Source: Spirochaetota bacterium
GTDB lineage: Bacteria; Spirochaetota; UBA6919; CBDBPB01
DNA: 64,000 nt
Direction: 5' to 3'
Assembly: GCA_965208615.1 (NCBI GenBank)
Contig: CBDBPB010000002.1
Coordinates: 104,054 to 168,053 of the forward strand
The notes beneath the pieces were generated by a model. That model was not told the DNA's origin, made no database searches, and saw only the letters and a program-made list of their open reading frames with translations. The translations under genes were made by a program, and so were the position numbers. Below are positions 8,732-51,241 of this stretch, piece by piece. Positions within the stretch are counted from its first letter, which is position 1. Each line of letters opens with the position of its first letter.

Positions 8732-9821
8732 ATGATCATAAGTAGCAAAGGGAATAGATTAAATATTAGAGCTTTGTTTTCTTTAAACAAGATTTTTATA
8801 TTTGTCTTTATTTTTTTTATGTTTGTGTTAACCATGTTATTCTTCTCTAAGGAAGTTTTATCTCAGGATAGACACAGAATAGATTTTTTAAATAAAAATA
8901 TAGTCAAAGGTATTAATATAGGGGATAATTATTATAGTGAAGATAATGAGAATCTTTTGTATGCCTTAGCTCGTTTTGAGTTGAAGAACAAACAGTTTTT
9001 AATTGACGATAATATTGTAGACTATAAAGGATATTTTAAACAGTTAAAGTTCCGGACTTATACAATTAAAAAGCGTGATACTCTTAGTAGTATTTCAAGG
9101 AAGTTTAATATAAATATTGCTACTTTAGTAAGTTTTAATAACATAGAGGTTGATAAGGCTTTAAGGATTAATAATCAGCTTTTTATTCCGAGTATGGATG
9201 GGATTTTATATTCTGTTAAAAAAGAGGATAGTTTAAGAGGTATTGTAAAGAAGTACTCAAAATATAATGTTAAGTTAGGCGACATAATTTATTTAAATAA
9301 TATAGTAAATAACAAGATAATAGAGAAAGAGCGTCTTTTTATTCCTGGAGCAAAAATAGCTAAGAATCTTCTTATTAAGAAGTTAGAGCATACTTTTGCA
9401 ATACCGGCAAAAGGTAGGATAACATCATTAGTGGGGATGAGGCCTAGTATTTTTAAGGGTCCCCAAAAAGGGTTATGAATTTCATCCAGGGGTTGATATA
9501 AAGGCCTATTATGGTTCACCTGTGAGGGCGGCCAAAAGTGGACGAATAAAGTTAGCAGGTAGAGTTAAGGGATATGGAAAAGTAATTTTCATTAACCATG
9601 GTAATGGTTTACAGACTAGATATGGTCATTTATCCCGGATATTGGTAAAACGTGGAGAGAGGGTAAGGAAGAGGCAGGTAATTGGGAAGGTAGGCAGTAC
9701 TGGCAATTCTACAGGTCCACATCTTCATTTTGAAGTGAGAAAGTATGGTAAGGTAGTTAATCTTACTCGTAAGTTTAAGGGATTAAGGTTAAAGCGTGGC
9801 GGATACTGGAAGTGGAATTAA
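8732..9821 (+). CDS. LysM + M23 peptidoglycan metallopeptidase (frameshifted ~9460-9500, probably sequencing error)
   Basis: Two LysM repeats (YTIKKRDTLSSIS, YSVKKEDSLRGI); FHPGVD in an alternate frame; TRYGHL and STGPHLHFEV. Confidence 0.85.
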
Positions 9822-9849
9822 TTTTATAATTTGTAGACATATTATAGTT

Positions 9850-10098
9850 TTTACTCATAGGGGATTAGGCATACTTTTTTTAGATTTACTGTGTGTTATC
9901 AAAGGTATTACTATGCTATTGTAAAGAGGTTTTGCTAGTTTACTTTTTATAATTGTTGTTTATTTATAGGGGATTAGGCATACTTTTTTTAGATTTACTG
10001 TGTGTTATCAAAGGTATTACTATGCTATTGTAAAGAGGTTTTGCTAGTTTACTTTTTATAATTGTTGTTTACTCATAGGGGATTAGGTATACTTTTTT
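9850..10098. repeat. 109-bp tandem repeat, ~2.3 copies
   Basis: GGGGATTAGG at 9860, 9969 and 10078 with near-identical intervening sequence. Confidence 0.93.
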
Positions 10099-10470
10099 GA
10101 AGTTTTACACATAACGTCAATATCTAATATTTAAATAATCCGCTCTACACCTTTATGGAACTGCAAATCCGTTAACACTTAATAAGGGTCTATAATCCTT
10201 AGTCTCAGTAAGGGATTCTTAATAGCTCCCGTAATGATGACTACTTGCATAAAAAGTGATATTTTGTGTTAATTACTAAGGCATTTAAACAGCACTTAAA
10301 GAGCATATAGGGATAACCTGCTTGACACAGGAAAATAACTTTTCCATAAATATTTTAACTTTCCTGTTCCACAAAGAGATATAAAATACATCTGCCTTTA
10401 CGTTATATGTCTTGCTTTTTACCTTGTAGACTTTGTCATAACTATGTCATAAAATGACAACTGAATTATT
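10045..10470. repeat. Conserved non-coding block, copy 1
   Basis: Aligns by eye with 46757-47180 with only scattered substitutions. Confidence 0.92.
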
Positions 10471-10475
10471 AAATA

Positions 10476-11321
10476 ATATCCCTTTAGCCTTAACAAAAAA
10501 TAAATATACTTACTCGTCTGACTTAAAGTCTAAGCGTACAAGTTTATATGCATGTCTATTTTCAACAACCTAAACTTGATGGAGTATCCGTTATACTAAA
10601 CCATAAAAAAGAAAAACTATATTCCCTTTAACCTCAACAAAAAATAAATATACCTACCAGCCCTAACTCAAGGTCTGAGCGTACAAGTTTATATGCATGT
10701 CTATTGTCAACAACCTAAACTTGATAGAGTGCCTGTTATACTAAACCATAAAAAAGAAAAACTATATTCCCCTTAGCCTCAACAAAAAATAAATATACTT
10801 ACTCGCCTGACTTAAAGTCTAAGCGTACAAGTTTATATGCATGTCTATTGTCAACAACCTAAACTTGATGAAGTATCCGTTATACTAAACCATAAAAAAG
10901 AAAAACTATATTCCCCTTAGCCTCAACAAAAAATAAATATACTTACTCGCCTGACTTAAAGTCTAAGCGTACAAGTTTATATGCATGTCTATTGTCAACA
11001 ACCTAAACTTGATGAAGTATCCGTTATACTAAACCATAAAAAAGAAAAACTATATTCCCCTTAGCCTTAACAAAAAATAAATATACTTACCCGCCTGACT
11101 TAAAGTCTAAGCGTACAAGTTTATATGCATGTCTATTGCCAACAACCTAAACTTGATGGAGTGCCTGTTATACTAAACCATAAAAAAGAAAAGCTATATT
11201 CCCCTTAGCCTTAACAAAAAATAAATATACTTACTCGCCTGACTCAAGGTCTGAGCGTACAAGTTTATATGCATGTCTATTGTCAACAACCTAAACTTGA
11301 TGAAGTATCCGTTATACTAAA
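10476..11321 (-). repeat. ~144-bp tandem array, 6 units; each unit is an inverted copy of the Cys-repeat gene 3' end plus terminator
   Basis: GCGTACAAGTTTATATGCATGTC at 10534, 10679, 10823, 10967, 11111, 11255; reverse complement matches ~50290-50420. Confidence 0.95.
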
Positions 11322-11416
11322 TTATCACATATTATGTATAGGTATGGCAATTGGGAATATTAAAACCTCTTATTAAAATATAGCTATCCCCTTTGAAATA
11401 GGTTTAAGTACTTTTT

Positions 11417-14136
11417 CAGGATGCGGAGAGGATGATATATCCTGTGAGGCTCTGGGTGATTGTGATAAAAATGTTGAAAGTCAGCTAGAGAAAGCAAAAG
11501 ATGAGGTTACAGCTGCAAATAAAGAGGTTAACGATGCAAAGAAAGAGGTTAAAAAGGATAAAAAATTAACGCCTGAAGAATTAGAAGAAGCAAGAAAAAA
11601 ATTAGAAGAAGCAAGAAAAAAATTAGAAGAAGCAGAAAAAAGATTAAAAGAAGCAAAAAAGATATTAGAAAAGCTAGAAGATATGTTCCTTAAGGTTTGC
11701 AAGGTAACAAGAACTACGGATGCTTATATTAACGCTGTTACTTGTAATAAGACTCTCGAGGATAAGTGTAATGGTGAGTGGGATTCACAAGACTGTATAG
11801 CGTCTCTTGGTACGGCAATTGGGGTATGTAGAGTAGAAAAAGATACAACTACTCGTACTGACGTTGTTACTTGTAATACGATGGTTCAAAGTGAGTGTGA
11901 TGACAAACTAGGTGAGTGGGGCTTGCAAAGCTGTACTACAAATCCTGGTACTAAAAGGCTAAAAGCAGTGCCAGAAGCAATATGCAAGGTAATTAGAGAT
12001 ACAGCTTCTCATGCTAATGTAGTTACTTGTAATACAATGGTTCAAAGTGAGTGTAGTAAAAGTAAAAGAAAAGGTAATTGGAATCCACAAATCTGTAATC
12101 CAGATATTGGTACGCCAATAAGTAAAACCTGTAAGATAATAAAAGATTCGGATACTCATACTGATGTTGTTACTTGTCAGACTACTACTAAGGCTGATTG
12201 TCCAAGTCCAAGTGTGTGGGATCCAAAAACCTGTATTCCGTCTATTGGTAATACATGTAAGATAACAGAAAATACGGATAGTCATACCGGCGTTGTTACT
12301 TGTAAAAAAACTACTAAGGATGATTGTCAAGGTGAGGGGCGTGCGTGGGGTCTACTAGCCTGTACTGAGTCTATTGGTACTCCAATAACTAAGACATGCA
12401 AAGTGGAAAAAGATACGGATAGTCATACCGGCGTTGTTACTTGTGATAAAACTACTAAAACTCAGTGTGATACTGATAAGGGTACCTGGGACCCACCAAG
12501 CTGTGAGCCGTCTGATGGTACAAAAAGGCAAACACCAGTGGAAGAAAAGGTTTGTAAGATAACAAAAGATACGGATACTCATACAGGCGTTGTTACTTGC
12601 GATAAGAATATTAAGACTGAGTGTGATACTAAACAAGGTGAGTGGGATCCACAAACCTGTACTCCGTTTACTGGTCAGCCCAAGACTAAGATTTGTAAGA
12701 TAACAACAGAGACGTATACTCATACAGGCGTTGTTACTTGTGATACAACTACTAAGGCTCAGTGTGATACTGATAATGGTGATTGGGACTCACAAAGCTG
12801 TACTACAAATCCTGGTACGCCTAAGACTAAGGTTTGCAAGATAACAGAAAATACGCCTACTCGTAGAGGTGTTGTTACTTGTGATACAGCTACTAAAACT
12901 CAGTGTGATACTGATAAGGGTGAGTGGGGCTTAAAAAGTTGTACTCCATCTAAGGGTAAGGCAATTAAGGTTTGTAAGATAACAACAGAGACGCCTAGTC
13001 ATACAGGCGTTGTTACTTGTGAGAAAACTACTAAAACTAAGTGTGATACTAAACATGGTGAGTGGGACTCAACAAACTGTACTCCGTCTGCTGGTACGCC
13101 CATACCAAATGGTACGCCCATACCACCTGGGGTTGTTTTTGTAAAAGCTGGAACTCGTACTACTAAAAATGGGAAATCCTGGAATACTGCTTATAGTGAT
13201 CTTCAAAAAGGTATTGAGGAAGCCTCAGAAAAGTTTAAGTCTACTAAAAAACCTGTTAAGGTATATGTAGCCCAAGGGACTTATAAGCCTCAGAGTAGGC
13301 CAAATGGTGGTACTAGTGATCGTCATAACCATTTTTCATTAAGGAATGGTGTAGAGGTTATTGGGGGTTTTCCTGGTCTAATTACTGGTGAGTCTAATAA
13401 TCCTAACTACTATAAGACTGTCCTAAGCGGTGATATCAGAAGAGTGGGCGATGATAGTGATAACGCCTATCATGTTTTTTATCATCCAGCTACTGCAAAG
13501 CTAGATAACACTGCAAAGTTAGTAGGGGTTATAATTACCAAAGGCAATACTAATACTAGTAGTAATTCCCATAGTTCTGGAGGAGGCATGTTTAATTATG
13601 AGAGCTCTCCAACGTTAACAAATGTGGAGTTTAATAGTAATACGGCATCATACGGAGGGGGCATGGATAATACTAGTAGTAGCTCTCCAACGTTAACAAA
13701 TGTGGAGTTTAATAGTAATACGGCATCATACGGAGGGGGCATGTTTAATTTTAATAATAGCTCTCCAACGTTAAAAGATGTGACTTTTACTAGTAATACG
13801 GCTACTTATAGAGGAGGGGGCATGTATAATTATAATGAGAGCTCTCCCACTTTAACAAATGTGACTTTTACTAGTAATACGGCTAATAGGTACGGAGGGG
13901 GCATGGTTAATTGGGGTAATAGCAAGCCCACTTTAGATAATACGGTGATTTTTAATAAAAACATTGCTGGTAGTGTTGCTAATAGCCAAATAGGCAAAGG
14001 CGGGGCTATTTATAATTATTCCTCAAGCATAACAGGCACACCAACCTATGGAACGGGTACTAATGAAAATAAAAAGGTTGTCAAAAATAATAATGGCACA
14101 TATAAACTTATAAAGTCAAACCTTGACTCAGACTAA
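11417..14136 (+). pseudogene. Cys-repeat/beta-helix surface protein copy 1, 5'-truncated (no RBS, start codon or signal peptide; first in-frame ATG at 11683)
   Basis: Frame open from 11377; GCGEDDISCEALGDCDKNVESQL identical to the 47689 gene; 10 four-Cys repeats and 5 GGGM-x-N repeats. Confidence 0.8.
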
Positions 14137-14248
14137 TAAGTATATTTATTTAGTCCGTTAAAATTAAGGGGAGTATAGCTCCTCTTTTTTTTATGGTTTT
14201 TATAACAAAGTAGCATAAATAGCAGTTATAGCATAGATAGACTTGACT
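14134..14248. repeat. 115-bp direct repeat after gene 1
   Basis: Identical to 15746-15860 except one base. Confidence 0.95.
14167..14192 (+). terminator. Rho-independent terminator
   Basis: AGGGGAG-tatag-CTCCTCT followed by a T run. Confidence 0.75.
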
Positions 14249-14374
14249 TATCCTTCTATAAATATTATCCTATGTGATAGAACAAGTTAATTTACTTTTA
14301 ATTCTATAGTTTTTAATAAAAAGTTGTTTTTTGTTTAGTTTGAGTTATCTTATAAAAAAACAAGGAATTAAGTT

Positions 14375-15748
14375 ATGACAAAAAAGAATTATTTAAACAT
14401 TTTAATAATACTATTAATTAGTATTTCGTTAGTTAGGGGCAAGTGCGATTCCGATAAGGTAATAAGTCCTCCTTCTGATGGTACAGAAAGGCCAGAACCA
14501 GTGGAAGAAAAGGTTTGTAAGATAACAACAGATACGGATACTCGTAGAGGTGTTGTTACTTGTGAAAAGAATACTACTAATTGTCAAGGTGAGTGGGTCG
14601 TAGGATGTCGTCCATCTAACGGTATACTTATTCCAAAAGCTCAAAAAGATCAAATTTTTGTAAAAGCTTTAAACCAAGATGAAAGGCGCTCTAATGAAGA
14701 TGGAAAGTCCTGGACAACTGCCTTTAGTGATCTTCAAAAAGGTATTAAGTATGCTTTTGAGAATAATAAAAAGATGGTATATGTAGCCCAAGGGACTTAT
14801 AAGCCTACTAGTTATCCAAATGGTGGTAGTGGTGATGATCGTTATAAGCATTTTTCATTAAGGAATGGTATAGAGGTTATTGGAGGCTTTCCCGGTGAAA
14901 AGCTTGATGAGCCTAATAATCCTGAGCAATATGAGACTATTCTAAGCGGTGATATTGGAACTAAAGATGATAGAGATAACGTCTATCATGTTTTTTATCA
15001 TCCTGATGGTACAAACCTAAATAACTCAGCAAAGCTAGCTGGGGTTACAATTACCCAAGGCTATGCTTATTTTGCGTCTCCTGATGTTAATGAGCCTCGT
15101 AAGTTAGGAGGGGGCATGTATAATTTTAAGAGCTCTCCAACGTTAACAACTGTGACTTTTCGTAATAATACGGCTAGAGATGGAGGGGGCATGTATAATT
15201 TTAAGAGCTCTCCAACGTTAACAGGTGTGGCTTTTACTGAAAATACGGCTATTACCGGAGGGGGCATGCGTAATTATAAGGATAGCTCCCCAACGTTAAA
15301 AGATGTGACTTTTACTAAAAATGAGGCTACTGTTAACGGAGGGGGCATGCATAATTGGGATAATAGCTCTCCAAAGTTAACAGATGTGACTTTTACTAAG
15401 AATAAGGCTACTATTAACGGAGGGGGCGGCATGTATAATTATTATTATAGCTCCCCAAAGTTAACAGGTGTGACTTTTAATAGTAATACGGCTAGTAGGT
15501 ACGGAGGGGGCATGTTTAATTTTGTTGGTTGCTCTCCAGAGTTCATAAGTAATGTGGTTTTTAATAAAAACATTGTTGGTAGTGTTGGTAGTGACCTAAT
15601 AAGCTACGGCGGGGCTATTTATAATAGTAAGACTTCAGCCATAACAGGCACTCCAACCTATGGAACGGGTGATGATGAAAATAAAAAGGTTGTCAAAAAT
15701 ACAGATGGCACATATAGTTTTGTAAAGTCAAACAGTTGGCCATGGTAA
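14375..15748 (+). CDS. Cys-repeat/beta-helix surface protein copy 2 (signal peptide, 1 Cys repeat, 6 Pmp-like GGGM-x-N repeats)
   Basis: AAGGA RBS; DGKSWTTAFSDLQ, VYVAQGTYKP, IEVIGGF, TILSGDIG beta-helix N-cap; intact ORF. Confidence 0.85.
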   Translation: MTKKNYLNILIILLISISLVRGKCDSDKVISPPSDGTERPEPVEEKVCKITTDTDTRRGVVTCEKNTTNCQGEWVVGCRPSNGILIPKAQKDQIFVKALNQDERRSNEDGKSWTTAFSDLQKGIKYAFENNKKMVYVAQGTYKPTSYPNGGSGDDRYKHFSLRNGIEVIGGFPGEKLDEPNNPEQYETILSGDIGTKDDRDNVYHVFYHPDGTNLNNSAKLAGVTITQGYAYFASPDVNEPRKLGGGMYNFKSSPTLTTVTFRNNTARDGGGMYNFKSSPTLTGVAFTENTAITGGGMRNYKDSSPTLKDVTFTKNEATVNGGGMHNWDNSSPKLTDVTFTKNKATINGGGGMYNYYYSSPKLTGVTFNSNTASRYGGGMFNFVGCSPEFISNVVFNKNIVGSVGSDLISYGGAIYNSKTSAITGTPTYGTGDDENKKVVKNTDGTYSFVKSNSWPW

Positions 15749-43755: not shown

Positions 43756-44159
43756 ATGATAAAGTACCTCCTTAGAAGTTTTACTATAATTAATGTATTT
43801 AATGATTAATTTAGAGATACTGATTATATTTTAAATTTTAGCTAAGACTATTTTTTATGGTGAGTTTGATTAATTTGCTTAAACCTAAAATCACATCAGT
43901 ATAACTACACAACTTATACAATATAATATAAAATATTTATTTATACAAGTAAAAAAGAAAAAATGTGCTTTAGGTTAGGGCTGACATGTGATTATTTTGA
44001 TTAACATAAAAAAGGGATAACTATTTATATTTTATAATATAAATTTAATAAGTTTTGGTATATTTAAAGCTTTATTTTTTTTGGTAAAAAAATATTATAT
44101 CGAATAATTGACTATTAATTTTGAGTTATTAATAGTATATAATCATAATTTAGCAGAGG

Positions 44160-46004
44160 ATGTCTATGAAAAATACTAAATCTACAAACAGGAGATCATT
44201 TATATTATCTGTATCACCGTTTAACATATTAAGTAGTTCAGAAGTTGAGCTACTTATACCTTCTATAAAGGAATTTACCTTTGAAGAAGATCAAATTATT
44301 GCAAAGGAAGGAGGAGAACCTGAGTTTTTTTATTTAGTTGTTTATGGAGTAGTTAAAAAGCGTTGTGATAGGGATGACATTTTGTATTACTATCCAGGGG
44401 ATAGTTTTGATGTTACCTCACTTATTAATAATATAAATGAACATACCTTCGACGCTGACGAAAAGACTTTATGTATTGCTATACCTAAGGATACATTTCT
44501 TAAGTTGATGTCTATCAACAGTGCTTTTGAGAAGTACTATCTTCAGGACTTATCACAAAAGATACACTCTATGATAAACAAGGATGTTAATCAAGAGCTG
44601 GCATCATTTATGGCGGCTAAGGTGGAGGATAGTCTTATACACCCTGCAATTTGTGTTAGTGAGAAGACATCCATTTATGATGCTGTTAAGAAGATGAGTG
44701 AAAATCATATATCTAGTATATTGGTCGATTGTCCAAACTGTAAGGGGGGATATGGTATAGTTACTGATACTGATCTTCGTAAAAAGGTGATATTAGAGAA
44801 TCGGTCTTACGAAGATGATATAGGTAATATTACTACTAATAAGTTAATCAGCATTGATAAAGAGGATTTTCTTTATAATGCATTACTGCTTATGACAGAA
44901 CACTCAGTAAAGCGTCTTATTGTTAAGGATGACAATAAGATAGTGGGTACTTTGGAGCAGATAGATGTACTTAGTACAATATCTCATAGATCTAGATTAT
45001 TCCACGTTCGTATTAACAGGGCTACTAGTGTTGAGGAGTTAAAGACAGCTAGTAAGGAGTCTATTTATATGATTAAGGCTTTGCTTAGTCAGGGAGTTAA
45101 GGTAATTAATATAACGAAGCTCTTGTCTCAGTTGTACTCTCAGTTATTTAGGAAGCTTTTTGAGATATTGGCACCTAAGGATTTGATTGATAATTCATGT
45201 TTAGTAGTTTTGGGTAGTGAGGGTAGGGGGGAGCAGATTCTCAAAACTGATCAGGATAACGCTATTATACTAAGAGACGGATATAGAAATGATAATTTTA
45301 GGGAGATAATGAATGCTTTTACTAATGCTTTGCTGGAGTGTGGTTATCCAAGGTGCAAGGGTAATATTATGGTATCCAATCCATATTGGGCAAAGTCTCT
45401 TAGGGAGTATGAGACTGAGATTAAGAACTGGATGGTAAATCTAAAGAATGAGGATATAATTAATATAGCGGCTTTATACGATGGTATTGCTGTAGCGGGG
45501 GACAAATTACTTTTGGATGAGTTAAAGGAGAGGTTTTTGCTATTGAGGAAGGATAAGAATTTATTATCCCAGTTTGCTTATCCAACAGTATATATAGCTA
45601 CACCTCTTTCATTTTTCAACAAGTTTATTTTGGATAAGGGTCACAATGATATGCTTGATATTAAGAAGGGTGGGATATTTCCGATAGTTCATGGTATTAG
45701 GAGTTTTGCGTTGGAGGCGAATCTTAGTGAGACTAATACTTTTGAGCGTATTGAGAAGATTAGTGAAATGGGGATTATAAAGAAAGACATAGCAGATGAG
45801 CTTATAGAGGCATTAAACTTTTTATTAACTATTAGGTTAAGGGTTAGGCTGGATAAGACGGATAAGGGAGAAAAGCTTGATAATTATATTGATCCTAGGG
45901 TATTATCCAAGTTGGAGCAGGATGTATTAAGAGATATTTTAAAGATAGTCAAGCGTTTTAAGGAGTTAGTTAGTTATCATTTTAGGTTAGACAGTCTTGG
46001 ATGA
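44160..46004 (+). CDS. cNMP-binding + CBS + DUF294 nucleotidyltransferase-like signalling protein
   Basis: CBS pair (GIVTDTDLR), LGSEGRGEQ..TDQDNA, CKGNIMVSNP.W, DIKKGGIFPIVHG. Confidence 0.92.
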   Translation: MSMKNTKSTNRRSFILSVSPFNILSSSEVELLIPSIKEFTFEEDQIIAKEGGEPEFFYLVVYGVVKKRCDRDDILYYYPGDSFDVTSLINNINEHTFDADEKTLCIAIPKDTFLKLMSINSAFEKYYLQDLSQKIHSMINKDVNQELASFMAAKVEDSLIHPAICVSEKTSIYDAVKKMSENHISSILVDCPNCKGGYGIVTDTDLRKKVILENRSYEDDIGNITTNKLISIDKEDFLYNALLLMTEHSVKRLIVKDDNKIVGTLEQIDVLSTISHRSRLFHVRINRATSVEELKTASKESIYMIKALLSQGVKVINITKLLSQLYSQLFRKLFEILAPKDLIDNSCLVVLGSEGRGEQILKTDQDNAIILRDGYRNDNFREIMNAFTNALLECGYPRCKGNIMVSNPYWAKSLREYETEIKNWMVNLKNEDIINIAALYDGIAVAGDKLLLDELKERFLLLRKDKNLLSQFAYPTVYIATPLSFFNKFILDKGHNDMLDIKKGGIFPIVHGIRSFALEANLSETNTFERIEKISEMGIIKKDIADELIEALNFLLTIRLRVRLDKTDKGEKLDNYIDPRVLSKLEQDVLRDILKIVKRFKELVSYHFRLDSLG

Positions 46005-46725
46005 CAGGGGTTAGTAAAAAGGTTATATCTTTGCATTGTATGTTATATATATATAGATATCGCATGGGTTCAATTATCTTTGATGTTGGAGCAGGATGTA
46101 TTAAGAGATATTTTAAAGATAGTCAAGCGTTTTAAGGAGTTAGTTAGTTATCATTTTAGGGTTAGACAGTCTTGGGATGACAGGGGTTAGTAAAAAGGTT
46201 ATATCTTTGCATTGTATGTTATATATATATAGGTATTGCATGGGTTCAATTATCTTTGATGTTGGAGCAGGATGTATTAAGAGATATTTTAAAGATAGTC
46301 AAGCGTTTTAAGGAGTTAGTTAGTTATCATTTTAGGGTTAGACAGTCTTGGATGACAGGGGTTAGTAAAAAGGTTATATCTTTGCATTGTATGTTATATA
46401 TATATAGGTATCGCATGGGTTCAATTATCTTTGATGTTGGAGCAGGATGTATTAAGAGATATTTTAAAGATAGTCAAGCGTTTTAAGGAGTTAGTTAGTT
46501 ATCATTTTAGGTTAGACAGTCTTGGGATGACAGGGGTTAGTAAAAAGGTTATATCTTTGCATTGTATGTTATATATATATAGGTATCGCATGGGTTCAAT
46601 TATCTTTGATGTTGGAGCAGGATGTATTAAGAGATATTTTAAAGATAGTCAAGCGTTTTAAGGAGTTAGTTAGTTATCATTTTAGGGTTAGACAGTCTTG
46701 GATGACAGGGGTTAGTAAAAAGGTT
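45911..46725 (+). repeat. ~175-bp tandem array (5 copies of the DUF294 gene 3' end separated by 4 near-identical ~60-bp linkers)
   Basis: GTTGGAGCAGGATG at 45911, 46085, 46261, 46436, 46611. Confidence 0.95.
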
Positions 46726-46756
46726 CTATCAGTCATTTTATTAGTGAAGATTTCAG

Positions 46757-47180
46757 TAGTTTACTTTTTATAGTTGTTATTTATCATAGAGGATTAGGCA
46801 TACTTTTTTGAAGTTTTACACATAACGTCAACATGTAATATTTAAATAATCCGCTCTACGCCTTTATGGGACTGCAAATCCGTTAACACTTAATAAAGGT
46901 CTATAATTCTTAGTTCCAGTAAGGGATTCTTAATAGCTCCCGTAATGATGACTACTTGCATAAAAAGTGATATTTTGTGTTAATTACTAAGGCATTTAAA
47001 CAGCACTTAAAGAGCATATAGGGGTAACCTGCTTGACACAGGAAAATAACTTTTCCATGAATATCTTAACTTTCCTGTTCCACAAAGAGATATAAAATAC
47101 ATCTGCCTTTACGTTATATGTCTTCATTTTGCCTTGTATCCCTCGTCATTACTACGTCATAAAATGATAACTAAATTATC
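46757..47180. repeat. Conserved non-coding block, copy 2
   Basis: Paralog of 10045-10470. Confidence 0.92.
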
Positions 47181-47469
47181 ATAAAAAAGAAGAGCCGTCC
47201 TCCCCTTAATTTTAACAAAAAAATAAACTATACTTACTAACTTTACTCAAAGTCTAAGCGTACAAGTTTATATGCATGTCTATTTTCAACAACCTAAACT
47301 TGATGGAGTGCCTGTTATACTAAACCATAAAAAAGAAAAGCTATATTCCCCTTAGCCTTAACAAAAAATAAATATACCTACCAGCCCTAACTCAAGGTCT
47401 GAGCGTACAAGTTTATATGCATGTCTATTGTCAACAACCTAAACTTGATGAAGTATCCGTTATACTAAA
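47180..47469 (-). repeat. ~145-bp tandem array, 2 units (inverted gene-end copies)
   Basis: GCGTACAAG at 47258 and 47403; same unit as 10476-11321. Confidence 0.93.
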
Positions 47470-47688
47470 TTATTACATATTATGTATAGGTATGCCAATT
47501 GGGAATATTAAAACCTCTTATTAAAATATAGCTATCCCCTTTGAAATAGGTTTAAGTACTTTTTTTAGTTGTATTTTTCTTTGAGATTGATTACCTTATA
47601 GTAGATTTATTTTTAAATGATATAGCTTTATATGCGTTGGCCTATTAGAGCTTAACGTTTTAAGCTAAAAAAAACAATAGGGGGAATC

Positions 47689-50355
47689 ATGAAGAAAGTA
47701 TTCTTTATTTTACTAACTTTAGCTTTATTAACAGGATGCGGAGAGGATGATATATCCTGTGAGGCTCTGGGTGATTGTGATAAAAATGTTGAAAGTCAGC
47801 TAGACAAAGCAGATAAAGATGTTGCAGCTGCAGAGGAAGAGCTAAATAAATTAGAAGTAGATGGGATAAATGATGGAAATAAAGAAGAGGTAGTAGGAAA
47901 AGTAGAAGATATAGCAACAGGAGTACAGAAAGCAGTAGATAGCTTAAAAGATGTAGTCGAAGAAGAAAAACTAAAAAATATAAAAAATAAACTTATAACA
48001 ATATTAAATAGTTTAACAGACGCAGACACAAAAAAAGTAAGAGAAATAGTAAATGTGCTAAAAACAGCAGTAAAAGGCCTAAAAACAGCAGTAGAAGCTT
48101 TAAAAGGCTTAGTAGACGAGGGAAAAGGAAAAAAGACCTGTAAGGTAACAAGTAATACGGATACTCATAGAGGCGTTGTTACTTGTGATAAAACTACTAA
48201 AACTAAGTGTGATACTGATAAGGGTACCTGGGACCCACCAAGCTGTGAGCCGTCTGCTGGTACAGAAAGGCAAACACCAGTGGAAGAAAAGGTTTGTAAG
48301 GTAACAAAAGATACGGATACTCATACAGGCGTTGTTACTTGTGATAAAACTACTAAAACTAAGTGTGATACTGATAAGGGTACCTGGGACCCACCAAGCT
48401 GTGAGCCGTCTGCTGGTAAGGCAATTAAGGTTTGTAAGGTAACAAAAGATACGGATACTCATGCTAACGTTATTACTTGTGATACAATGGTTCAAAGTGA
48501 GTGTAGTAAAAGAGATGGTGAGTGGGGAGTGCAATGTACTAAATCTAATGGTATGCCTAAGATTAGGCTTTGTAAGGTAAAAAAAGATACGGATGATTAT
48601 ATCGGCGTTATTACTTGTGATACAACTACTAAGGCTAATTGTCAAGGTGAGTGGGATTCACAAGACTGTAGGCCATCTGATGGTACTCCAATTAAGATAT
48701 GTAAAGTAAAAAAAGATACGACTACTCATATCGGCATTGTTACTTGTAAGAAGACTACTAAAACTAAGTGTAATACTGATAAGGGTACCTGGGGGTCCAC
48801 CAAGCTGTAATCAAAATCCTGGAGCTCTCATACCAGCTGGGGTTGTTTTTGTAAAAGCTGGAACTCGTACTACTAAAAACGGTAAAACCTGGAAAAACTG
48901 CTTATAGTGACCTACAAAAGGCTATTGATGAAGCTAAGAAAGCTAATAAACCTAAGGTATATGTAGCCCAAGGGACTTACAAGCCTACTGGTCATCCAAA
49001 TGGTGGTAATGGTGGACGTGAAAAGCATTTTTCATTAAGGAATGGTGTAGAGGTTATTGGTGGTTATAAAGGTGAAAAGGTTGATGAGTCTAATAATCCT
49101 AACTACTATAAGACTATCCTAAGCGGTGATAATAACGCCTATCATGTTTTTTATCATCCCGCTATTGCAAACTTAGATAAAACAGCAAAGTTAGTGGAGG
49201 TTACTATTACCAAAGGCAATGCTAATGGTAGTGATCCTCATGAATACGGAGGGGGCATGTATAATTATAATAGCCATCCCACTTTAACAACTGTGATTTT
49301 TGAGAGTAATAAGGCCGGATGGGGAGGGGGCATGTATAATGAGTATAGCTCTCCAGAGTTAAGAAATGTGACTTTTGAGAGTAATAAGGCCGGATGGGGA
49401 GGGGGCATGTATAATAAGGATAATAGCAAGCCAAAGTTAACAAATGTGACTTTTACTTAGTAATGAGGCCTCATACGGAGGGGGCATGTTTAATATTAAT
49501 AGTTCTCCAGAGTTAAAAGATGTGACTTTTGATAGCAATGAGGCTAAGCAATACGGAGGGGGCATGTATAATAAGGATAATAGCAAGCCAAAGTTAACAA
49601 ATGTGACTTTTACTAGTAATGAGGCCTCATACGGAGGGGGCATGTTTAATATTAATAGTTCTCCAGAGTTAAAAGATGTGACTTTTGATAGCAATGAGGC
49701 TAAGCAATACGGAGGGGGCATGGGTAATGAGAAGAGCTCTCCCACTTTAAAAGATGTGGAGTTTACTAGTAATACGGCCGACTTAGGAGGGGGCATGTAT
49801 AATAATAATAGCTCTCCCAAGTTAACAAATGTGACTTTTACTAGTAATACGGCTAATAGGTACGGAGGGGGCATGTTTAATAGTGATAGCTATCCAACGT
49901 TAAGAAATGTGACTTTTACTAGTAATGAGGCCTCATACGGAGGGGGCATGACTAATTATAAAACCTTTCCCACTTTAAAAGATGTGACTTTTACTAGTAA
50001 TACGGCTACTAAAGGAGGGGGCATGTATAATTATAAAACCTTTCCCACTTTAAAAGATGTGACTTTTAATAGCAATGAGGCTAAGCAATACGGAGGGGGC
50101 ATGTATAATAGTGATAATAGCAAGCCCACTTTAGATAATACGGTGATTTTTAATAAAAACATTGCTGGTAGCATTGAAGATAAAAAAGAAGGAAAAGGCG
50201 GGGCTATTTATAATGTTGTTGGTAAAGATAATATTCCTGACTCAAGCATAACAGGCACACCAACCTATGGAACGGGTACTAATGAAAATAAAAAGGTTGT
50301 CAAAGTGGGTAATACATATAAACTTGTACAGTCAAACCTTGAGTCAGGCCAGTAA
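47689..50355 (+). CDS. Cys-repeat/beta-helix surface lipoprotein copy 3 (three +1 frameshifts at ~48792, ~48895, ~49458)
   Basis: GGGGGA RBS, LLTGC lipobox, coiled coil, 5 four-Cys repeats, 12 GGGM-x-N repeats; colinear with copy 1 across the shifts. Confidence 0.85.
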
Positions 50356-50382
50356 GTATATTTATTTAGTCCGTTAAAATTA

Positions 50383-50408
50383 AGGGGAGCATAGCTCCTC
50401 TTTTTTTT
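50383..50408 (+). terminator. Rho-independent terminator
   Basis: AGGGGAGC-ata-GCTCCTCT plus T run, same as after genes 1 and 2. Confidence 0.75.
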
Positions 50409-50471
50409 ATTGGTTTTAATAACATTGAAATATTTATAGATGTAGGTTATATTTACTTAATGGAGGAGCTT

Positions 50472-51009
50472 ATGTTTAATATAAAAAACAGTATCTTACT
50501 TGTAATAGATGTACAAACTAGACTAGCTAATGTAATGCATGATCTAAACATCTTAATTCATAATTTAAAGCGGATCATTAATGGAGCTAAAATTCTTGGC
50601 TTACCTATTATTGTTACTGAACAATATCCTGAGGGTATTGGCCATACTATAGAAGAAATAGAACAGCTTTTACCTAAGAATCCTATATCAAAGTTAACTT
50701 TTAGTTGTTGTGAGGATCAAAGGTTTATAGAAGAACTTGAAAAACATAATAGAAAACAGGTTATTGTATGCGGTATAGAAACTCATATATGCGTATACCA
50801 AAACCGTGGTTAGCCTTATTGAGAGAGGTTATGAGGTGCAGGTTATATCCGATGGGGTATCATCTAGAAAACTGGATAATAAGATAATCGGCCTTGAGCT
50901 TATGAGAGATTGTGGGGCTAAACTTACCTGCATAGAAACCATTTTATTTGAACTTCTAAAGTTAGCATCGGGTGATAAATTTAAAGAAATACTAAAAATT
51001 GTTAAATAG
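50472..51009 (+). CDS. Isochorismatase-family hydrolase (frameshift ~50802)
   Basis: LLVIDVQ, TEQYP.GIG.T, FSCC, GIETHICVYQ, DGVSSR; GGAGG RBS before ATG 50472. Confidence 0.9.
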
Positions 51010-51241
51010 TATAGTTTTATAATTACTTAGTATTAACTTACTTAACGGTGCTTAGCTAACAGGCTTATTGCCTGGTAGATTATATGGCTTAGTGGACAAC
51101 TTAAATTATATCATTTTGATTTGTCTTAGATGGACTATTTTATTATACTAAGGGCTAGATATTTATATAATATTTTATATTCACAGAAATAGTTTATCTA
51201 TATTTATTAAGTTGTATATAAAATAGATTAGGGTTATAAAG

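Follow-up and report, generated by a model that had tools for sequence, protein, structure and literature searches.

A dispersed repeat resembling miniature inverted-repeat transposable elements, and a surface-lipoprotein gene family beside it, in an uncultured spirochaete

Results

Two loci with a common order of parts

The DNA analysed here, a window of 64,000 nt from contig CBDBPB010000002.1 of the Spirochaetota assembly GCA_965208615.1, contains two loci at which a non-coding repeat with tandem arrays stands upstream of a surface-lipoprotein gene: locus 1 (window 10045..14248), which follows a gene with LysM and Peptidase_M23 domains, and locus 2 (window 46757-50420), which follows a gene with cNMP/CBS/DUF294 domains (Pfam). 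The source genome (2.46 Mb on nine contigs, termed C1-C9; 31% G+C; completeness 99.4%) is the sole member of its own family among the genomes compared, and its identity as a spirochaete is supported by eight matches to FlaA in the genome, against none in 14 control genomes. An earlier, sequence-only reading had taken the two loci for copies of a non-autonomous, self-diversifying adhesin module with a fixed architecture, possibly an undescribed antigenic-variation system with expressed and silent members.

The ordered parts that this reading had listed are all present at both loci (Table 1), with 90.9-93.2% identity upstream of the genes and just 66-82% in the gene bodies. In a BLAST comparison of 9800-14400 with 45900-50500, 10045-10745 matched 46757-47469 (90.9% over 715 nt), 11035-11416 matched 47180-47564 (93.2%), the DNA for the mature N-terminus at 11417-11526 matched 47732-47841 (90.9%), and the gene end and terminator at 13579-14207 matched 49786-50424 (82%). 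The mature N-terminal peptide CGEDDISCEALGDCDKNVESQL is the same in both loci, as are ~72 nt of N-terminal coding DNA. Tandem Repeats Finder (TRF) reported arrays on the right side of 144 bp x 5.8 (10479-11321, 93% matches) at locus 1 and 145 bp x 2.0 (47180-47469, 84%) at locus 2, together with the two different left-edge arrays that had been noted, 109 bp x 2.3 (9850-10098) and 175 bp x 4.7 (45911-46730). The translations bear out the counts of 10 versus 5 Cys repeats and 5 versus 12 GGGM beta-helix repeats (locus 1 versus locus 2), and the description of the array units as inverted copies of gene ends also holds, the 144-bp unit (unit144) matching the ends of both genes in reverse in a BLAST search of the genome (window ~14151-14075, E 8e-8; ~50367-50312, E 1.5e-10). 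Two details of the earlier description are revised. The supposed common left edge, TAGTTTAC, is internal, as homology to other copies of the repeat runs ~40-100 nt further left into a left arm; and the architecture is the same in the order of parts but not in content, as locus 1 is without a 167-nt promoter/signal-peptide segment that locus 2 has.

A dispersed intergenic element

The sequence-only reading knew of a single second copy, at 46757-50420, and proposed a genome-wide BLASTN search with the conserved block. When run with the 426-bp block, this search returned 60 matches on eight of the nine contigs, including 45 copies of at least 150 bp at 80-100% identity, so that the genome holds ~45-60 copies and at least 33,429 bp of element DNA (1.36% of the genome). 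Against a crude, ORF-based (open reading frame) gene set, all 45 copies are intergenic and ~34 of them adjoin unrelated genes, for example gyrA and cysS; there is no strand bias, 15 copies being co-oriented with both neighbours and 12 opposed to both. These observations do not support the designation of the repeat as part of an adhesin module. The copies are enriched in divergent regions (15/44) and scarce in convergent ones (2/44), relative to a baseline of 73% co-directional, 13% divergent and 13% convergent. An apparent co-orientation of ~70% with the downstream gene vanished on counting and reflects the divergent-region enrichment.

All-versus-all comparison of the copies delimits a whole element of ~700-800 bp, consisting of a left arm of ~75-175 bp, a core of 366 bp and a right arm of ~230-280 bp, with coverage dropping sharply at ~-75 to -175 and ~+230 to +280 about the core. 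Of 22 positions, 18 are the same in the left end, TTGTTATCAAATGTTTTAGTAG, as in the reverse complement of the right end, TTGTTACTAATTGTTCTAGTAG. The right arm ends in ...CTAGAACAATTAGTAACA, the left arm has one to three copies of a ~25-nt motif, and both arms contain additional direct copies of this terminal motif. A degenerate end pattern (two mismatches or fewer) has 25 forward and 25 reverse occurrences in the genome, and a reversed control has none; of 400 further genomes of the phylum, 16 have a single match each, about the control rate. Within the core, mean pairwise identity is 88%, with long runs in which at least 90% of copies agree.

No Rfam family matched the whole window at gathering thresholds or 9800-11500 at E up to 1. 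A structured RNA was considered and rejected, the consensus fold of 33 cores reaching ~-24 kcal over 387 columns on either strand, and so was a coding core, as only ORFs of 20-23 aa are kept and sequence conservation alone accounts for them. Promoter-like sites in the upstream regions of both loci are at the level of shuffled controls, and one minus-strand terminator-like hairpin lies in the right arm of locus 2 (47207-47187). At C4:586374-586562 and C2:90527-90790, downstream of genes of the lipoprotein family described below, a pair of right ends stands face to face within ~190 bp; these pairs look like mini-derivatives made solely of right arms.

Tandem arrays and a captured gene tail

There are 63 tandem arrays with a period of at least 50 bp in the genome, and the 21 that lie within 160 bp of a core comprise nearly all of the high-identity (93-100%) non-coding ones, most others being coding repeats. 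Arrays of 2-15 units adjoin about half of the cores, and their periods vary by locus from 74 to 337 bp. The inverted unit array, which had been listed as a part of the module, is therefore a general trait of the element's right arm at many loci. Like modular variable-number tandem repeats (VNTRs), the element combines conserved ends with an inner module of variable number; unlike the known cases, it has a varying period and a unit that takes in the terminus.

Ten arrays have units that carry the right-terminal motif. In seven of these (five of eight if three 74-bp arrays are counted once) the unit junction links the exact terminus, ...TAACA, with an internal point of the arm that varies (+29, +36, ~+60, +90 or +120); in two the terminus is shortened by 5-6 nt, and in one the unit runs ~35 nt into the flank. 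Such frequent use of the exact terminus as a breakpoint argues for the end being, or having been, a biochemical entity. At locus 1, each 144-bp unit comprises an inverted relic of a lipoprotein gene tail, a terminator-like piece and a shortened right terminus, and the last unit retains the terminus ..AATTATCACA.

The tail relic is a feature of the element everywhere, beyond loci 1 and 2. In a reference element, C4:559410-560136, positions 503-638 match the 3' ends of the lipoprotein genes in reverse (66-69% over 136 nt, E 1e-9 to 7e-7; unit144 up to 84%). Read in reverse, the right arm translates as ..DESKKVVKEVIDNGDRYKHVGLDFELG.., comparable to the gene tail ..NENKKVVKVGNTYKLVQSNLESGQ and its stop, and a terminator-like piece then follows. 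Inverted right termini are also found directly after or inside the terminators of family genes (C4:586562, C3:4740 and C7:47957) and slightly further away at C2:90527, a geometry from which an end-spanning duplication could have captured the tail. The array at 45911-46730, which repeats the tail of the DUF294 gene and extends up to the left arm of the element at locus 2, is a present-day case of a gene tail amplified against the left arm.

The lipoprotein family and its shared 5' cassette

The surface-lipoprotein family comprises 15 loci by tblastn. The C-terminal part of gene 2 matches PF02415 (Chlam_PMP; 52.1 bits versus a cut-off of 20.6, E 2.9e-14) and a neighbouring paralog matches PF13229 (Beta_helix; 35.9 bits versus 25.9, E 7e-9); the Pfam matches at E up to 0.01 include no C-terminal autotransporter family, and in its place there is a lipobox. 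Relatives occur at 17 loci, in Bacillus, Treponemataceae and Akkermansiaceae among others. A four-Cys module of ~47 aa, CK(V/I)t.DTDtHtGVVTCdkttKt.CdtdkG.Wd...C.Ps.G, occurs ten times in 11683-13100 and five times in 48130-48800. Neither it nor the N-terminal coiled coil has a Pfam family at E up to 0.01, and the four-Cys module may be an undescribed domain.

Alignment revealed one junction common to seven loci (locus 1, locus 2, C3:2837, C4:602656, C4:382073, C8:89909 and C4:182639), at which the right terminus (..AATTATTA(A)CA) is joined to the upstream region of the gene (T(A)TTATGT.TAG.TATGCC...); at C4:182639 this region abuts a complete element right end. As seven loci have the same junction, the ~95-bp conserved "spacer", previously counted as a part of the module, is the gene's own upstream DNA abutting the right terminus of the element, and element and 5' cassette appear to have been copied together. 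The locus 1 "spacer" is 98% identical to those of locus 2 and the C3 and C4 copies (BLAST). Overall, a co-oriented element stands upstream of 7 of the 15 family loci.

The promoter/signal-peptide segment is present at locus 2, C3:3057, C8:89710, C7:47067 and C7:294073, and partly present at C4:602875, C4:381855 and C4:182362. Orphan cassettes also exist: the one at C4:602656 is without ribosome-binding site (RBS) and ATG and ends after 57 nt of the N-terminus, and the one at C4:382073 ends inside the promoter region. A 417-aa lipoprotein encoded at C4:181087-182337 (- strand) has the same signal peptide, the CGEDDISCEALG N-terminus, the coiled coil and one Cys repeat, followed by a different C-terminal part with a metzincin-like HEIGHLLGLRH (Peptidase_M10, 23.8 bits versus a cut-off of 24), which suggests that the N-terminal cassette is shared between unrelated putative effector domains. 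Among paralogs, the highest identity (97.3% over 560 nt) lies in upstream and signal-peptide DNA (47180-47739 versus the C3 locus). In coding bodies the identity over 120 nt stays below 95% throughout, contrary to the idea of a self-diversifying gene.

A conserved intergenic piece of ~170 nt (..aagtagcataaatagcagttatagcat..ttgacttatccttctataaatattat..) lies at window 14137-14374 and also at C2:90527, C2:78730 and C4:588593; it stands after five family genes and ahead of the next tandem paralog (14375-15748), of which it is probably the promoter region.

State of the two genes

Relative to six relatives in the alignment, locus 1 has a gap of 167 nt that takes out the promoter region, RBS, ATG and signal peptide, and the first in-frame ATG/GTG/TTG of paralog 1 is at 11683. 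Locus 1 is most likely a pseudogene, a copy without promoter or signal peptide. The proposal of expressed and silent members fits this pair, locus 2 having the promoter, start and signal peptide that locus 1 is without, but not the family, in which at least six loci carry the promoter segment.

Gene 2 has three frame breaks of one extra base each, in a G5 run near 48790, in an A5 run at 48893 and at TT near 49462; read through these breaks it gives a continuous protein that is homologous throughout. The gene is probably intact and its breaks assembly errors, an inference that can be set beside short-read data (contigs only, word depth ~2-4, one DNA-type run), whose contigs placed on 44000-51200 break within repeats. 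One contig with depth 9.4 of 16.4, possibly derived from a paralog, has one base fewer at 48893. The LysM/Peptidase_M23 gene that precedes locus 1 (8732-9821) is likewise split, into 8732-9478 and 9522-9821 at an A5G3 run, where dropping one base restores ..KGYEFHPGVDI..; this break is probably an assembly indel. The isochorismatase-like gene at 50460-51009 is split at 50806, and the sole short-read contig there (depth 2.4) has one base fewer at 50800. The bases missing from the contigs at 50800 and 48893 could each reflect an error or a paralog-derived contig. Several further genes in the genome appear split in the same way, and the assembly may hold systematic +1 errors in short runs.

Search for a partner enzyme

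As had been stated, the window contains no match to a transposase, integrase, invertase or reverse transcriptase (RT). Across the genome, Pfam searches gave no matches to rve, DDE_Tnp_1, Y1_Tnp, the TnpB zinc ribbon, RVT_1 or Resolvase; the zero for the Resolvase/invertase family speaks against an invertible segment or shufflon, and the zero for RVT_1 against a diversity-generating retroelement. The suggested search for a recombinase, HUH or RT gene beside any copy turned up none, apart from two Xer-like tyrosine recombinases of ~306 aa (C4:85925 and C8:117172), neither of them beside locus 1 or 2, and one transposase-like gene of IS1595 type (C3:157423-158327), which is broken by one in-frame TAA and is separated by ~3 kb from a copy of the element at the end of contig C3. 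As its flanks are without element ends, the IS1595-type gene was rejected as the autonomous partner.

Beyond this genome, the core was absent from the 40 relatives searched save for one 31-nt match (E 2.4e-4), two exact core 23-24-mers had no matches in metagenome contigs, and the complete element had none in plasmid or phage collections. A second sample of the study yielded short contigs 90-99% like the element arms and the gene terminator (window 46336-50407), one of which runs past 50407 into an inverted right terminus; a piece near 47561-47581 has a depth of ~93. This sample may contain a related strain or species that has the same repeat family.

Table 1. Features of locus 1 and locus 2 (window positions)
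Feature	Positions	Strand	Basis
109-bp x 2.3 array: element left arm and ~13 nt of flank	9850..10098	+	TRF; unit holds left-terminus-like motif GTTATCAAAGG
Element left arm, last copy, with motifs like the terminal inverted repeats	10004..10104	+	Alignment of 33 copies; left ends
366-bp conserved core (the "420-bp block" of the sequence-only reading is 10045-10470)	10105..10470	+	BLAST; mean pairwise identity 88%
Right arm as 144-bp x 5.8 units	10479..11329	+	TRF; tail homology; terminus alignment
Native upstream region of lipoprotein gene ("spacer"), locus 1	11330..11416	+	Ends at deletion junction
Lipoprotein paralog 1: coiled coil, 10 Cys repeats, 5 GGGM repeats	11419..14136	+	Open frame from G-CGEDD...; Chlam_PMP weak
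Terminator region common to locus 2 and other paralogs	14137..14207	+	Sequence comparison
175-bp x 4.7 array: last 30 DUF294 codons and downstream DNA	45911..46730	+	TRF; Pfam DUF294/DUF294_C
Element left arm and core, locus 2	46700..47179	+	BLAST, alignment
Right arm as 145-bp x 2.0 units, ending in terminus ..AATTATTACA	47180..47477	+	TRF, alignment
Native upstream region ("spacer"), locus 2	47478..47564	+	BLAST, alignment
Promoter-region/RBS/ATG/lipoprotein signal-peptide segment, not in locus 1	47565..47731	+	BLAST, alignment
Lipoprotein paralog 2: lipobox LLTGC, 5 Cys repeats, 12 GGGM repeats	47689..50355	+	Chlam_PMP E 2.9e-14
Terminator region of paralog 2	50356..50424	+	Sequence comparison

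Discussion

Two unrelated things are probably juxtaposed at these loci: a non-autonomous repeat resembling miniature inverted-repeat transposable elements (MITEs), with tandem arrays in its arms, and a Pmp-like lipoprotein family. A dedicated, undescribed adhesin-variation system is not supported, and antigenic variation is unproven. Like a MITE, the repeat is short, non-coding and dispersed in many copies, and it has terminal inverted repeats; neither a target-site duplication nor an autonomous insertion sequence with the same ends, here or in relatives, was found. The earlier view of a non-autonomous unit can be retained for the repeat, as no transposase with its ends was found in the genome, but not for an adhesin module.

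In this scenario of juxtaposition, a single ancestral insertion would have placed the element just upstream of a 5' cassette (upstream region, promoter, lipobox signal peptide and CGEDD N-terminus), and element and cassette would then have been copied jointly to at least seven places, giving rise to the "fixed architecture". Array copy number would later have drifted (6, 2, 3.8, 1 and so on), and locus 1 would subsequently have lost its 167 nt. The arms seem prone to tandem amplification, mostly from an internal point to the exact right terminus, for which nested self-insertion followed by core-core deletion, one-ended strand transfer and fork stalling at a bound end are conceivable routes; the relic of the family tail and terminator in the right arm would be old and inverted. 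The data themselves show the copy number, the ends, the common junction, the tail homology, the 167-nt deletion and the lack of known transposase families; it is past transposition, the order of events and the mode of array formation that we infer here.

Several observations weigh against this explanation. The core is better conserved than the arms, opposite to the pattern in many MITEs and possibly a sign of a host function, and about half of the copies are without one recognisable terminus. Some 20 copies have both ends, and their flanks show no consistent target-site duplication (AGAGC(T) stands on both sides of one of them), although these flanks are compatible with a duplication of 2-3 bp or a decayed one. 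No autonomous partner was located, so mobility would have to be read from anatomy alone. Lastly, the element is over-represented near the lipoprotein family, with at least four junction types upstream of family genes and inverted right ends at three to four family terminators; chance juxtaposition fails to explain this enrichment.

Some of these points would suit an element that was never mobile, namely a host cis-element under selection in intergenic regions, for instance a site for protein binding or nucleoid organisation or a regulatory platform, whose arrays arose by replication slippage between its short internal repeats. The core is the best-conserved part, copies favour divergent, promoter-bearing regions (15/44 versus ~13%) and are depleted in convergent ones, and both a consistent target-site duplication and a transposase are missing. 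Such an origin nevertheless seems unlikely given the sharp ends, the terminal inverted repeats with equal forward and reverse counts and the reuse of the exact terminus as an array breakpoint; moreover, the core was found in none of the 40 relatives beyond the one 31-nt match, no RNA fold is conserved, promoter-like sites do not exceed shuffled controls, and in co-directional regions there is no strand bias (15 versus 12). For antigenic variation by gene conversion of the Borrelia type, the 5' cassette and the tail/terminator would act as upstream and downstream homology, with locus 1 as a silent donor to locus 2. The spirochaete host, a surface-lipoprotein family of at least 15 loci, the orphan 5' cassettes and a promoter-less locus 1 that yet keeps ~72 identical N-terminal nt and a conserved tail all recall the vmp genes of B. 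hermsii with their upstream and downstream homology sequences (UHS and DHS) (PMC6011951). With one full-length promoter-less copy and at least six loci bearing the promoter segment, there is no single expression site with many silent copies; paralogs have no coding tract of high identity, the fusion of the cassette to a metzincin-like domain fits evolutionary domain shuffling better than switching, and the repeat architecture is generic to the genome. We regard conversion as improbable, and a UHS/DHS-like scheme as a minority reading worth keeping.

Even less credible, and in our estimate very improbable, is a composite unit in which element and gene move together between the left terminus and a surrogate right end downstream of the gene, both used in trans, with the lipoprotein gene as cargo of an enlarged element. 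The homology between loci 1 and 2, which lie in unrelated neighbourhoods (M23/LysM versus DUF294), begins in the left arm and stops just past ..ATAACA beyond the terminator (window 14207/50424), which resembles the last bases of the right terminus (...TAACA). This match is just 5-6 nt and may be chance; locus 2 and C8:87537 share sequence past that boundary, the left boundaries of the seven loci differ and lie mostly at inner motifs rather than at the outer terminus, and reversed right ends are found downstream of just 3-4 of the 15 family loci. A bolder thought, which we also hold to be unlikely, is that the termini may be live breakpoints of an unrecognised end-directed mechanism that re-copies DNA from an internal point to the terminus, builds arrays, captures gene 3' ends and disperses them in the manner of Pack-MULEs, the repeats maybe doubling as UHS/DHS-like homology. 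Such a mechanism, working without a known transposase, would at times re-copy DNA beyond the terminus; captured tails would include that of the DUF294 gene (x 4.7) and, in every right arm, that of the lipoprotein genes with its terminator, and captured piece and shared 5' cassette, which would bracket the lipoprotein genes, could serve to swap gene bodies.

The preferred reading, a MITE-like repeat beside a lipoprotein family, removes a false lead, as the architecture is not a dedicated variation machine, and puts on record a lineage-specific family of repeats in an uncultured spirochaete that branches deeply and has almost no transposases. The repeat is unusual among bacterial MITE-like elements in amplifying its own arm as far as the exact terminus, in its captured tail and terminator and in accounting for nearly all high-identity, long-period non-coding arrays of the genome. 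These arrays would be ready VNTR markers and, if still changing, a handle on the birth of bacterial minisatellites. The lipoproteins, with a shared lipobox/coiled-coil/Cys-repeat cassette and differing C-terminal domains, are candidate variable surface antigens.

Among known systems, eukaryotic MITE-derived satellites form when a transposon arm or an entire MITE is amplified in tandem, which gives long-period arrays in or beside the element. Arm amplification is common to both; those satellites have known transposase families, whereas the present repeat is bacterial and has no recognisable partner. Pneumococcal BOX repeats follow the modular formula boxA-(boxB)n-boxC. The element differs from the nearest described repeats, BrickBuilt and BOX, in its long, locus-specific periods, its units reaching to the exact terminus, its captured gene tail and its lack of a recognisable transposase.

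BrickBuilt of Porphyromonas gingivalis is a MITE of 19 copies with a 23-nt repeat unit and demonstrated promoter activity (PMC4596501). Like BrickBuilt, our element is non-coding, always intergenic and species-restricted, with small inverted-repeat ends, an internal spacer-less tandem array and multiple dispersed copies (19 there, ~45 here). Its units are 74-337 nt instead of 23 nt, the unit is the whole right arm, usually to the exact terminus and with a locus-specific period, and it has a 366-bp core and a gene-tail relic. The pneumococcal repeats BOX, RUP and SPRITE are interspersed and are thought to be parasitic and mobilised in trans (PMC3049150). With BOX, the element has in common a modular repeat with an inner module of variable number, past proliferation and absence from most relatives; BOX modules are tens of nt long and have strong RNA folds, in contrast to the far longer units and unconserved fold seen here.

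The gene family invites two comparisons. Variation in B. hermsii copies silent vmp genes to a place behind a single promoter, and the crossover points are predicted to be the UHS and DHS; the resemblance extends to a spirochaete host, a lipoprotein family, a conserved 5' end and downstream sequence, and a promoter-less member (PMC6011951). The Vmp system has ~60 silent genes, one expression site and linear plasmids, whereas here most members have their own promoter segment, one full-length copy is promoter-less, conversion tracts are not in evidence and the extragenic repeat occurs across the genome instead of being specific to the family. In contrast to chlamydial Pmp proteins and other right-handed beta-helix surface proteins, the present family has a lipoprotein signal (LLTGC) and no autotransporter domain among its Pfam matches; what the two have in common are the Chlam_PMP repeats, the Beta_helix match and the many paralogs.

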